A stretch of DNA of 62,759 bases, counting the filler, from Globobulimina sp. (Eukaryota): assembly GCA_003354225.1 (NCBI GenBank). It is 50 parts of 50 records of this genome, joined end to end, with 100 filler letters (N's around TTAATTAATTAA, not from the genome) between each part and the next. Parts side by side here need not be neighbours in the genome. Positions count along the whole stretch, not along the records: positions 59,092 to 60,247 come from PIVH01022122.1; positions 60,348 to 61,503 come from PIVH01022123.1; 48 more parts are not named here. One strand, written 5' to 3'. This document shows positions 59,092 through 61,503 of the stretch, in pieces. A program made the translations under genes and the position numbers. The notes beneath the pieces are model-generated. The model did no database searches and was not told the origin of the DNA. It saw only the letters and a list, made by a program, of their open reading frames with translations. Positions within the stretch are counted from its first letter, which is position 1; every line of letters starts with the position of its first letter.

Positions 59092-60197
59092 CCTACATTG
59101 ATATTCTTGCGGTTCCGCGCCGCATAATTGATCCCTTTGAAGCTGTTCTGGCCACTCAAGCGAGGGAAGGTAGTCACGCCTTGGCTGTGTTTACCTAATC
59201 CTTCGCCGGATTTATATCCGTATTTATTCAACATCCGATAGCCGTAATTGCTCACAATGCTAAAGCGATATTCTTTGTTCGTGATAGGAAACATTGGACG
59301 GAAGTTACTGTCGTATTTTTTGATGTGCGGGTCTGGTAATTTTATATCGGAGTCGTATTTGTCATACTCACTGCCATCAGATTTGAGCACAGATTTGCAT
59401 TCAAACTGCGTGAATGCAGACTGCTTTTCTAAGGGCTGCGGCACTTCGCCATTGCCAGTGTTGGTGGTGGCGGTCAGCAAATCTTTTACTTTTTTGATTT
59501 CCAACGCATTGGAAATGGTTTTGGTGGGTGTTTTGATTGGACTTTTTTTGTTTTTCTCTTTGATTTCGCCGTCTTCCGCGGTGTACTCACTGTCGTTGGT
59601 GTCGTTGTTATCGTTGCTGTTTTTGAGGAATTCGGGTATAAATCCGAGTTTTTTTGCGATTTGCAACGATTTTTGCTGTGCGGCAGAGATGATATCATGT
59701 GTATATTTTTTCTCATTTTGTTTGATTTTCAGCTGTAAATCTTGCTTTTGTTTGGTGAAAATCACCGTGGAGATGGATTTGGAGAGTAAGTGTGCGCGCA
59801 ATTTGGTGATTGACATGGCGTCGTTTGGGTTGATGCCGCATTCGGTGTACAAGTACTTTTTGTTCAAGCCGTTGGAAGTTGGATATATGTCTTGTACGCC
59901 TTGCTTGTTTAAGCGATTTGTGATGGAGTTGGTCTCCAATTGGATCACAGCACTGATGTCCCGATGGAATTCGTCGCAATAACGCAGTTTTGGTAAACAG
60001 TCCAATTTCTCAATGATTGCGCGGGCCGCTAAGGGCTGAAAACCTAAACTGGTCAACGAGTATCTATCATTTTGTGGAGTGTTTTTGTATTGGTATTGGT
60101 CGGAGTTATCCGGATTTGTCATTAATTTACGTTTCTTGGTCGGTGGTTGTAAGTTGCTGTCATTGTCGATGGAGAATTGGCCCGTTATTGGATCCAA
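59092..60197 (-). CDS. G-patch domain protein, fragment
   Basis: SNYGYRMLNKYGYKSGEGLGKHSQGVTTFP. Confidence 0.85.
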
Positions 60198-60453
60198 TTA
60201 GTAGAACTAGAGAATTTTGTAGATTTTATGAGACGACATAGATTCCGNNNNNNNNNNNNNNNNNNNNNNNNNNNNNNNNNNNNNNNNNNNNTTAATTAAT
60301 TAANNNNNNNNNNNNNNNNNNNNNNNNNNNNNNNNNNNNNNNNNNNNCAAGCAATAATACAACAGAAGTTTATACCAAAACAATTGCAAGTCCGCTTGAT
60401 AGTTTAATAAAAAACATTAACTTGTAGCCATATACGATATAACTTCAATGTGG

Positions 60454-60473
60454 TTATACAATTGTTAGGCATA
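60454..60473 (+). other. attC-like L'/R' end with integron core site GTTAGGC (60464-60470)
   Basis: GTTRRRY lies 18 bp before the first ATG and is complementary to the site after the stop codon. Confidence 0.7.
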
Positions 60474-60487
60474 ATTGGGTGTGCTGC

Positions 60488-61360
60488 ATGAAAAGTAAAA
60501 TTATGAAAGGGAAAGAAATATTTTTAGAAATTTATAATGAGCAAGTTGAGATATTTTATAATTCTTTTGTCAATTCCTCAAGAAGTCTATTTTATAAACC
60601 AGAAAATAAGAATAATCTACATCACGCAGGTGAATTTGGAATTTATAGAGAACGGATTGTTTCAAAATTCCTAAGATTATTTGCACCTCAAAGATTGCAA
60701 TTTGATAGCGGATTTATAATTACACCATTTGATACACCTTCGAAGCAAACTGATATTATAATATATGATAAAAATGAGAGTCCATTAATAAAAAGCGAGG
60801 AAGGTCAGAAATTTTTCCCAATTGAGACTATAGCATCAGTTGGAGAGATCAAATCAGTTTTATCAAAAGAACAATTGAAGGTTGCTCTATTAAATTTAGT
60901 GGCAATCAAAAAACTTAGAGAAAATATTGGCGATAGGTTTAAGTTATACTCAATTGCCCCAAAGGGTATTGATTTAGAAAAGATGCAAACCAAGGAATTT
61001 CCGTTTAATCCAATAAAATATCCTAATGACCACATATGCACATTTTTGATTTGTGAAAACATTAATTTTAACCTAAATGAAGATAATGTTAAAACTGAAA
61101 TTGAAAATTTATATGATAAAGATACGCCAGAAAGACATAAAGTTGATTTTATTCTTGGATTGGAAAACGGATTTATAGGATATTTTAAAAAAGGTTATGG
61201 ATTTTCACCTTTCCCAACAATCGAAGATGGCTTTAAATTAGATATGGTAATGAAAAATGATACAAATAGAGACCACATCAAGCAATTTGTTAATGAAATA
61301 TATAATCGGTTAACAATGACTACTATTTTGAAGCCTGAGATTTCAGATTATTTCAAATGA
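60488..61360 (+). CDS. Bacterial DUF6602-like PD-(D/E)xK nuclease
   Basis: HAGEFGIYRERIVSKFL..GFII..SKQTDIIIYD..P..FFPIETIASVGEIKSVL; intronless. Confidence 0.85.
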   Translation: MKSKIMKGKEIFLEIYNEQVEIFYNSFVNSSRSLFYKPENKNNLHHAGEFGIYRERIVSKFLRLFAPQRLQFDSGFIITPFDTPSKQTDIIIYDKNESPLIKSEEGQKFFPIETIASVGEIKSVLSKEQLKVALLNLVAIKKLRENIGDRFKLYSIAPKGIDLEKMQTKEFPFNPIKYPNDHICTFLICENINFNLNEDNVKTEIENLYDKDTPERHKVDFILGLENGFIGYFKKGYGFSPFPTIEDGFKLDMVMKNDTNRDHIKQFVNEIYNRLTMTTILKPEISDYFK

Positions 61361-61369
61361 CAAATCAAC

Positions 61370-61503
61370 TATGCCTAACAATTTATAAACAAAATGCTGC
61401 AAATTAGCTAATTGAAAGGGTGTACAAGTAATGAACCCCGCAAATTTTATTTCGTCACAGAAATTAAATTTGTTTTAATGGTGTTCAAAAATTAAATTCG
61501 CTA
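61370..61503 (+). other. attC-like site, R''/L'' start (GCCTAAC at 61373-61379), truncated by the contig end
   Basis: TATGCCTAACAATTTATAA matches the reverse complement of the upstream TTATACAATTGTTAGGCATA except for one extra base. Confidence 0.7.

Follow-up and report, generated by a model that had tools for sequence, protein, structure and literature searches.

The window analysed here, a stretch of 62,759 bases from the Globobulimina sp. assembly GCA_003354225.1, consists of 50 unrelated contigs of 1156–1158 nt each, sorted by length and laid end to end, with linkers of 100 nt between them (44 N, the block TTAATTAATTAA and another 44 N); any feature spanning a linker is an artefact. The GC content of the 50 contigs spreads from 0.23 to 0.47, and the window therefore probably mixes organisms. 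Our subject is one of these contigs, at positions 60348–61503, on which a single gene for a DUF6602/NucC-like nuclease lies between two short complementary sequences in the manner of an integron cassette. Integrons are the textbook gene-capture device of bacteria, and according to recent work their cassettes store phage-defence genes. As the finding is one entire contig, sequence neighbouring it in the window is uninformative about the cassette. The features of the contig, all on the plus strand, are as follows.

60348–61503 (+): one whole assembly contig, 1156 nt, GC 0.287, with artificial N linkers on both sides
60348–60466 (+): putative high-copy element resembling an integron insertion site (attI-like), a 'type A' copy that, compared with its siblings, lacks 21 nt, ending at the crossover GTT and including a core seen in alignment with 8 sibling contigs
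60359–60427 (+): 3′ remnant of a recombinase gene, 22 codons and stop, seen in translation (...TTEVYTK...SPLDSLIKNINL*), with a C-terminus common to the longer fragment on sibling contig L123
60464–60466 (+): crossover triplet GTT, 36 nt 3′ of the stop codon of the recombinase remnant
60467–60477 (+): cassette head, AGGCATAATTG, which would pair with its own tail in the circular cassette
60503–61360 (+): coding sequence of 285 aa, DUF6602/NucC-like PD-(D/E)xK nuclease, with catalytic D84, E115 and K117 and stop TGA at 61358–61360
61366–61376 (+): cassette tail, CAACTATGCCT, which can pair with the head at 10 of its 11 positions
61377–61503 (+): first 127 nt (AAC...) of a putative long, hairpin-type site resembling those of integron cassettes (attC-like), assigned by homology to a unit of sibling contig L117 and ending with the contig

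The bracketed cassette and its junctions

A preliminary description of this DNA had reported a single open reading frame (ORF) between inverted-repeat arms, and this is what the contig holds. The arms, at 60460–60477 and 61366–61383, are 18 nt long and 94% complementary, with one mismatch and 14 nt exact. Within them, GTTAGGC at 60464–60470 fits GTTRRRY and GCCTAAC at 61373–61379 fits RYYYAAC, the core consensus of integrons. The ORF is bracketed by GTT plus AGGCATAATTG on its left and by CAACTATGCCT plus AAC on its right, and the one mismatch among the 11 positions falls at position 8 (A/G), where A in the head faces C in the tail, giving A·C on the top strand and G·T on the bottom strand. 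The contig thereby shows what marks the cassettes of classical integrons, namely GTTRRRY/RYYYAAC bounds and a cassette 5′ end complementary to the start of its own site. Two details of the preliminary description need amending. The downstream arm does follow the stop codon, but at a spacing of 9 nt from TGA to TATGCCTAAC and not 10; and the TTATA/TATAA boxes are both present, but the upstream side carries one extra C.

Inverted repeats arise by chance in AT-rich DNA, and 17 of 1000 dinucleotide shuffles of the contig contain, somewhere, an exact one of at least 14 nt. A stricter bracket test was therefore used, in which GTT plus 11 nt upstream of a gene is compared with the reverse complement of 11 nt plus AAC downstream of it. 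The contig scores 10/11, and none of 395 mismatched pairs of upstream and downstream flanks drawn from homologue loci reaches 9/11. With this control, the placement of the repeat in the short flanks of the gene, its GTT/AAC context, the junctions described next and a position-8 mismatch common to related loci, we regard a chance match as barely credible. The 14-nt arm has no extra copy among the other 49 contigs (three matches at two or fewer mismatches, two of them the arms themselves, with 1.48 expected by chance), and when the two flanks were searched by BLAST in the remainder of the window and in 88 loci, only chance-type matches of 12–17 nt came up.

The edges of the cassette were also located by aligning contigs of two public runs of one sample, both of which contain this contig, with it. 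In one run (X2), the summed contig depth is 690–1717 over 60348–60464, compared with 2–6 over the ORF, and loose ends with several differing continuations begin at 60466–60471. The same run holds a second copy of the downstream element, which matches 61378–61463 exactly and has other sequence in front. By the loose ends and the second downstream copy, the unique part is therefore bounded on either side at a triplet, GTT on the left and AAC on the right. One contig of run X2 extends 189 nt past position 61503. A further run, X1 (a marine metagenome), contains just a 37-nt piece with 3 differences, from which no conclusion is drawn.

Metagenome contigs were also scanned with a 20-mer of the upstream element, which gave 20 loci (L104–L123). 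Nineteen of them are contigs of one assembly; L115, the sole match outside it, sits in apparent coding sequence and was set aside as a chance match. The 19 siblings have in common a core of about 70 nt, with CAATTGTT at its end, and differ directly after it; the preliminary description had suggested looking for such sibling contigs with the same flanks. In public contigs, many different sequences come directly behind the GTT at 60464–60466. Counting the contig and the 18 siblings having post-core sequence, at least 19 different first cassettes or sequences stand behind one core. A complete first cassette with cognate ends is present in five of the 18 (L107 at 10/11; L111, L112, L113 and L116 at 9/11).

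What precedes the core tells what the left element is likely to be. In L119 and L123, the core runs on from the 3′ end of a tyrosine recombinase gene; in L123 the gene stops 36 nt short of the GTT, and the C-terminal fragment of 65 aa is 57% identical (31/54, E 3e-20) to a recombinase linked to a cassette array in Flavobacterium (see below). Because the core is continuous with the recombinase 3′ end in these siblings, the upstream element of the contig appears to be attI-like. The element, which carries the last 22 recombinase codons, is not the 3′ half of a preceding hairpin attC, and in this the preliminary description needs correcting. Three upstream contexts of the core were found in all: the recombinase 3′ end (L119 and L123); type A, in which the last ~22–30 recombinase codons are kept (the contig analysed here, L112, L113, L117 and others); and type B, in which the core lies beside a group II intron or intron-like DNA (L104, L121 and L122). 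The type A upstream sequence was also considered as a hairpin unit or a cassette in its own right and rejected, its ends being non-complementary and no cognate tail being visible by eye in the printed copies.

On the other side of the gene, the preliminary description had judged the downstream site to be long since it did not close; it does not close because the contig ends at 61503, and its length is supported by homology. Positions 61366–61503 are identical at 105 of 138 positions to a unit of L117, which runs 57 nt further, closes in ...AAAC GTT and is ~186 nt long (the best tail in L117 itself reaches just 7/11). By this comparison, the contig's site would be ~186–190 nt long and would close ~55–60 nt past the contig end, with a 3′ arm complementary to AATTTATAAAC.... 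The hairpin units that follow the first cassettes of other siblings measure 122 nt (L112), 127 nt (L113), 122 nt (L111) and 124 nt (L116). In three of the four folded sibling units, the bottom strand gives the longer continuous stem and the lower energy; the contig's own site is incomplete.

Related arrays and recombinases in Bacteroidota

Homologues of the nuclease gene were collected from one genome per species; 333 stretches encode relatives, and the best 80 were taken. Among these, the closest proteins come from a Bacteroidales metagenome-assembled genome (MAG; L001, 69% identity) and a Roseivirgaceae MAG (L002, 65%), which, with the 57% identity of the sibling recombinase to that of Flavobacterium, bears out the Bacteroidota origin suggested in the preliminary description. 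A protein-based scan of metagenome contigs with an alignment of the close relatives found no relative. The sole Vibrio homologue fetched (L040) is 36% identical over a partial match. Separately, nine viral contigs carry relatives at 28–36% identity.

A bracket of at least 9/11 is present at three of the 79 scorable homologue loci, L058 (Ilyomonas), L063 (Flavisolibacter) and L076 (Flavobacterium), all of them from Bacteroidota. As on our contig, position 8 is mismatched at all three, A standing after the GTT and G in the reverse-complemented tail. L076 and L058 lie inside arrays of same-strand ORFs separated by repeats. The two closest homologues are differently placed: L002 has an ABC-transporter operon on one side and a PIN toxin pair on the other, and L001 is followed by closely packed genes of unassigned function, Imm11 and ankyrin, with no bracket at either locus. 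The surroundings of L001 (L001:1173–9498) are tight genes on the same strand, including an Imm11 immunity protein and a 625-aa ankyrin-repeat protein; they are a different kind of variable island, as the gaps are too short for hairpin sites.

The Flavobacterium genome that holds L076 (G001) gives the fullest view of such an array. One strand has 60 copies of a repeat core in 109 kb, starting 2.5 kb downstream of a recombinase gene, and the 117 kb examined (G001:C4:2596000-2713100, covering L098–L103 and L076) contain at least 130 units of 123–129 nt, each running from AAC to GTT. The cassettes have a median length of 561 nt, and the first unit found lies ~0.5 kb after the recombinase stop. Neighbouring units were compared by an adjacent-pair rule: the 10 nt that follow the GTT of one unit are set against the reverse-complemented 10 nt that precede the AAC of the next, and at least 8 must agree. 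The rule holds for 97 of 129 adjacent pairs, compared with 371 of 16,771 non-adjacent pairs, and the two flanks of one single unit match at chance level. Position 8 is mismatched in 98% of the good pairs, as A versus G in 90 of the 97. The two ends of a unit pair as a stem; among 56 units, compensatory changes occur at 9 of its 10 predicted pairs. If crossover takes place at G|TT, the first bases of a cassette will consequently pair with the start of its own site once it is circular; by its sequence, the G001 bracket appears to be this integron rule plus a fixed mismatch at position 8. The cassette layout first proposed for the contig is in this respect well founded, its bracket following the same rule as the 130-unit Flavobacterium array and the three Bacteroidota homologues of the gene.

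These arrays also bear on a different explanation of the repeat, in which the arms are the ends of a small transposon or miniature inverted-repeat transposable element, or a regulatory palindrome. An ORF flanked by inverted repeats is typical of a simple transposable unit, too. The contig, however, has no transposase, its arms adjoin GTT and AAC as they do in 97 of 129 array cassettes, and what lies outside the arms is repeated DNA that adjoins other cassettes at these very triplets. We therefore consider this explanation very improbable.

The recombinase beside the Flavobacterium array is a protein of 392 aa with Phage_int_SAM_4 and Phage_integrase domains, encoded on the same strand as the array; its stop codon is followed, after 91 nt, by GTT and the cognate head of the first cassette. 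In Ilyomonas (G002), where a homologue 37% identical to this recombinase is encoded, the protein match ends 158 nt before a GTT bearing the cognate signature, and 20 kb hold 14 cognate hits, 11 of them with A/G at position 8, compared with 1–4 in shuffles. No recombinase adjoins the L058 array, which is from the same Ilyomonas genome. There, some 12 tandem repeats of 21 nt (L058:6488-6755) lie between housekeeping genes and the start of the recombinase-less array. Including sibling L123 with its spacing of 36 nt, a recombinase gene just 5′ of the insertion triplet, with a cognate cassette next, is found in three settings independent of one another.

Is this recombinase the integron integrase, IntI? 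Against the TIGR02249 model, the G001 protein aligns over positions 2–178 and 240–314 only, with 19 residues where the model has ~60, and hence lacks the IntI-specific insert. For the G001 and G002 recombinases together, the alignments cover positions 2–179 and 240–314, with 19–22 residues in place of ~60 and scores of at most 99+98 bits compared with a cut-off of 265; the array-linked recombinases do have the Pfam domains Phage_int_SAM_4 and Phage_integrase. None of the five relatives' genomes has a TIGR02249 match above the cut-off, so that no IntI with the additional domain was found in them. The preliminary description had suggested looking for an intI-like recombinase; siblings and relatives have a tyrosine recombinase beside the site, and that of the relatives is not IntI.

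It could still be that the contig's cassette belongs to a classical integron and is moved by a genuine IntI, with the comparison to Bacteroidota beside the point. The core sites do fit the classical GTTRRRY/RYYYAAC, and the recombinase of the contig's organism is known from a C-terminal fragment of 65 aa, so that an IntI-type insert further upstream is possible. We nevertheless think this improbable, because that fragment is 57% identical to the array-linked recombinase of Flavobacterium, which is without the IntI insert (TIGR02249 below cut-off, 0/5 genomes), and because the position-8 mismatch rule is common to the contig and those Bacteroidota arrays.

The nuclease and the cargo of sibling cassettes

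The gene probably starts at ATG 60503, the start shared by all 18 aligned homologues; no Shine-Dalgarno sequence precedes it, and the leader is A-rich. Its product matches Pfam DUF6602 (E 3.4e-21) and the PADLOC profiles for Cas-associated PD_DExK (1.3e-31) and NucC (8.3e-17); NCBIfam has no family for it. Searched against solved structures, the family profile found NucC alone (5/5 matches, best E 6.3e-18). An AlphaFold (AF2) model was obtained with a predicted local distance difference test (pLDDT) of 89.6 and a predicted template modelling (TM) score, pTM, of 0.88, for which all top Foldseek matches are NucC over the whole length (best E 9.9e-14, TM 0.63 by query and 0.75 by target). Across the top NucC matches, the TM-score normalised to target is 0.71–0.76 over ~280 aligned columns, so that the similarity takes in the embellishments outside the common nuclease core. 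In alignment, SKQTDIIIYD and VGEIKS fall on the catalytic D and ExK of NucC, and D84...E115-I-K117 is intact, confirming the PD-(D/E)xK pattern that had been read from the sequence. The catalytic motif of NucC is given as IDx30EAK in the text available of its description (bioRxiv 10.1101/694703).

Modelled as a homotrimer, the protein scores 0.85 compared with 0.01 for the best control; the runs agree in at least 84% of contacts, and the partner pLDDT is at least 83. The mark for such scores was calibrated on two copies (reached by 21 of 30 one-chain-pair proteins and by 0 of 23 single-chain proteins), and as three copies are unlike this calibration and solved NucC trimers exist, the pass may reflect likeness only. 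With the solved NucC structures (PDB 6p7p, 6uxf and 7zgv) the protein shares the whole-length fold, the IDx30ExK motif and, as modelled, the trimer. It differs from them in being ~45 residues longer, with 13–19% identity in structural alignments, in being encoded by a cassette without a cyclase, and in the replacement of Tyr81.

The last two differences matter for activation. NucC needs cyclic tri-AMP (cA3) from a partner enzyme. The cassette has one gene only and hence no cyclase, and it contains neither a cGAS/DncV-like nucleotidyltransferase (CD-NTase) nor a type III clustered regularly interspaced short palindromic repeats (CRISPR) neighbour. Among the pocket residues for cA3, which the accessible part of the same preprint lists as Arg53, Tyr81 (stacking on adenine), Thr226 and the gate-loop residues His136 and Tyr141 (bioRxiv 10.1101/694703), the two positions mapped by alignment show that the equivalent of Arg53 is kept (R64) and that of Tyr81 is Glu. 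The known trigger of NucC therefore cannot be assumed for this protein.

The nuclease is an ordinary new member of a known family, and the label 'uncharacterised' that the preliminary description gave it has to be dropped: Damona, a DUF6602 integron cassette of Vibrio cholerae, is reported to protect against phage in the portion consulted of its preprint (Darracq et al., bioRxiv 10.1101/2024.07.02.601686). The contig's gene resembles Damona in its DUF6602 domain, in being a single-gene cassette and in matching the profiles for Cas PD_DExK and for the small endonuclease of cyclic oligonucleotide-based antiphage signalling systems (CBASS); it differs in host phylum and cassette system, and the likeness rests on domain and description. 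Damona is relevant to one more explanation, namely that the nuclease is a spare NucC-type effector, whose activating cA3 would come from a CBASS or type III CRISPR system at some other place in the genome. The NucC-like fold over the whole length, the modelled trimer and the retained equivalent of Arg53 are all compatible with it. We consider it unlikely, however, given the Glu in place of Tyr81, a gene that travels alone as a cassette, and the way in which Damona was found, namely in a challenge of individually cloned cassettes in V. cholerae or E. coli MG1655, as far as the text seen describes it (bioRxiv 10.1101/2024.07.02.601686).

PADLOC-type defence genes follow the core in six of the 18 siblings: AbiLi with or without AbiLii/RloB (L105 and L121), ABC-3C components (L108), cll (L110), PDC-S31 (L114) and a weak pVip-like radical-SAM match (L118). 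With the contig, 7 of 19 first cassettes look defence-like. The other sibling cargo includes an antiporter, an M23 peptidase, a DUF4238 protein and an AraC regulator, and some of the cassettes have two or three genes.

Group II intron domains V–VI (Rfam RF00029, 63–64 bits) were found at L105:1940-2017 (−) and L122:1222-1299 (−), in both cases on the opposite strand and directly after the first-cassette ORF, where the site should begin. Partial intron-like sequence also lies upstream of the attI-like core in L109, L120 and L121. The antisense position of domains V–VI directly after the cassette ORF in L105 and L122 resembles that of the group IIC-attC introns of integrons, as they appear in the part of the literature seen (PMC3001079); unlike such sites, the contig contains no intron.

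On the adjoining contig, at 59092–60197 (−), an ORF of 368 aa matches the G-patch domain (E 1.9e-09), which is characteristic of eukaryotes. For several other ORFs on neighbouring contigs, Pfam gave no match.

Interpretation and relation to known integrons

We consider it likely that the contig is the start of an integron-like array from an uncultured member of Bacteroidota, comprising an attI-like site, a one-gene cassette for a NucC-like defence nuclease and a cassette site of ~186–190 nt. The following sequence of events could then be envisaged. The left 119 nt would be an attI-like site, whose usual place is 36 nt 3′ of the stop codon of an Xer-like recombinase gene; of this gene, the contig keeps the last 22 codons. 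Acting on two sites, the Xer-like recombinase would cut their folded bottom strands at the AAC/GTT triplet and set free a circular cassette, in which head and tail would pair as an 11-bp extension of the site. The circle would re-insert at the attI-like site, and the first cassette would be transcribed from the recombinase side. The cargo is predicted to be a stand-alone, probably trimeric, NucC-like DNA endonuclease, which most likely would act as a single-gene anti-phage system, inactive until infection. What the data show directly is the layout with its two junctions, the bracket rule common to relatives, a recombinase gene close to the insertion triplet in three settings, hairpin sites in siblings, and a NucC-like fold with an intact catalytic motif; strand choice, recombination chemistry, expression, the defence role and its trigger by infection are proposed by analogy with integrons and from the sequences described above.

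Several points weigh against this reading. First, 76 of the 79 homologue loci, including the closest (L001 and L002), show no such bracket or array, and the gene family overall is not cassette-bound. Second, the reading does not account for the three upstream contexts of the core, and the summed depth of the core, ~300-fold that of the cassette, would suit numerous arrays as well as a mixed population. Third, the siblings are from one assembly and may share the contig's sample, and hence are not independent. Fourth, the contig carries no recombinase gene, that recombinases of this family recombine such sites is something we infer, and the closing arm of the downstream site would lie outside the contig. 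Finally, where function is concerned, NucC itself depends on cA3 from a partner enzyme, the cassette has no such partner, and the protein has Glu at the equivalent of Tyr81.

The system shares much with sedentary chromosomal integrons, such as the V. cholerae superintegron, and with clusters of attC sites lacking integron integrases (CALINs). Like them, it has one-gene cassettes in a single orientation, a putative G|TT crossover, RYYYAAC/GTTRRRY cores, and a cassette 5′ end complementary to the start of its own 3′ site. Its sites are hairpins, with the bottom strand folding better in three of four sibling units, its putative insertion site lies beside the recombinase gene, and it has defence cargo and antisense group II introns at sites. 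The differences are of four kinds. First, the recombinase of the relatives is without the IntI insert, has an N-terminal extension of ~100 aa and points towards the cassettes. Second, the attI-like site lies 36–91 nt behind the recombinase 3′ end, or about 158 nt in G002, where the count starts at the last residue of the protein match. Third, the sites are 122–186 nt or longer, with an outer stem of 11 nt past the triplet and a fixed mismatch at position 8. Fourth, the phylum has almost no integrons in IntegronFinder 2.0, as far as the part consulted goes (PMC9024848). According to that part, the Bacteroidetes earlier had integrase-only elements, plus one complete integron in Salinibacter (PMC9024848), and a review, again seen in part, counts Bacteroidota among the integron-bearing phyla (PMC8618304). 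We found no description of these arrays in the literature on integrons and cassettes in Bacteroidota, a search for which most subscription journals and supplements were outside scope; as far as this literature goes, the cassette system is a little-described, unpublished variant of the integron.

These features together raise a broader proposition, for which we see the scales as evenly balanced: that uncultured Bacteroidota have a non-IntI integron, with an Xer-like recombinase and an insertion site 36 nt behind its stop codon, at least 19 first cassettes (7 of them defence-like), and its own recombinase lineage and site grammar (the 11-bp outer stem and a position-8 mismatch that would discriminate between strands), serving as a bank of phage-defence genes. 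To what is known of such arrays, the contig adds a Damona/NucC-like cargo, an attI-like junction tied to the recombinase 3′ end, and many alternative first cassettes in one assembly. Should a recombinase without the IntI domain indeed move these arrays, cassette capture would have evolved or diversified beyond IntI, and current tools would miss a large pool of accessory and defence genes in a major environmental and gut phylum.

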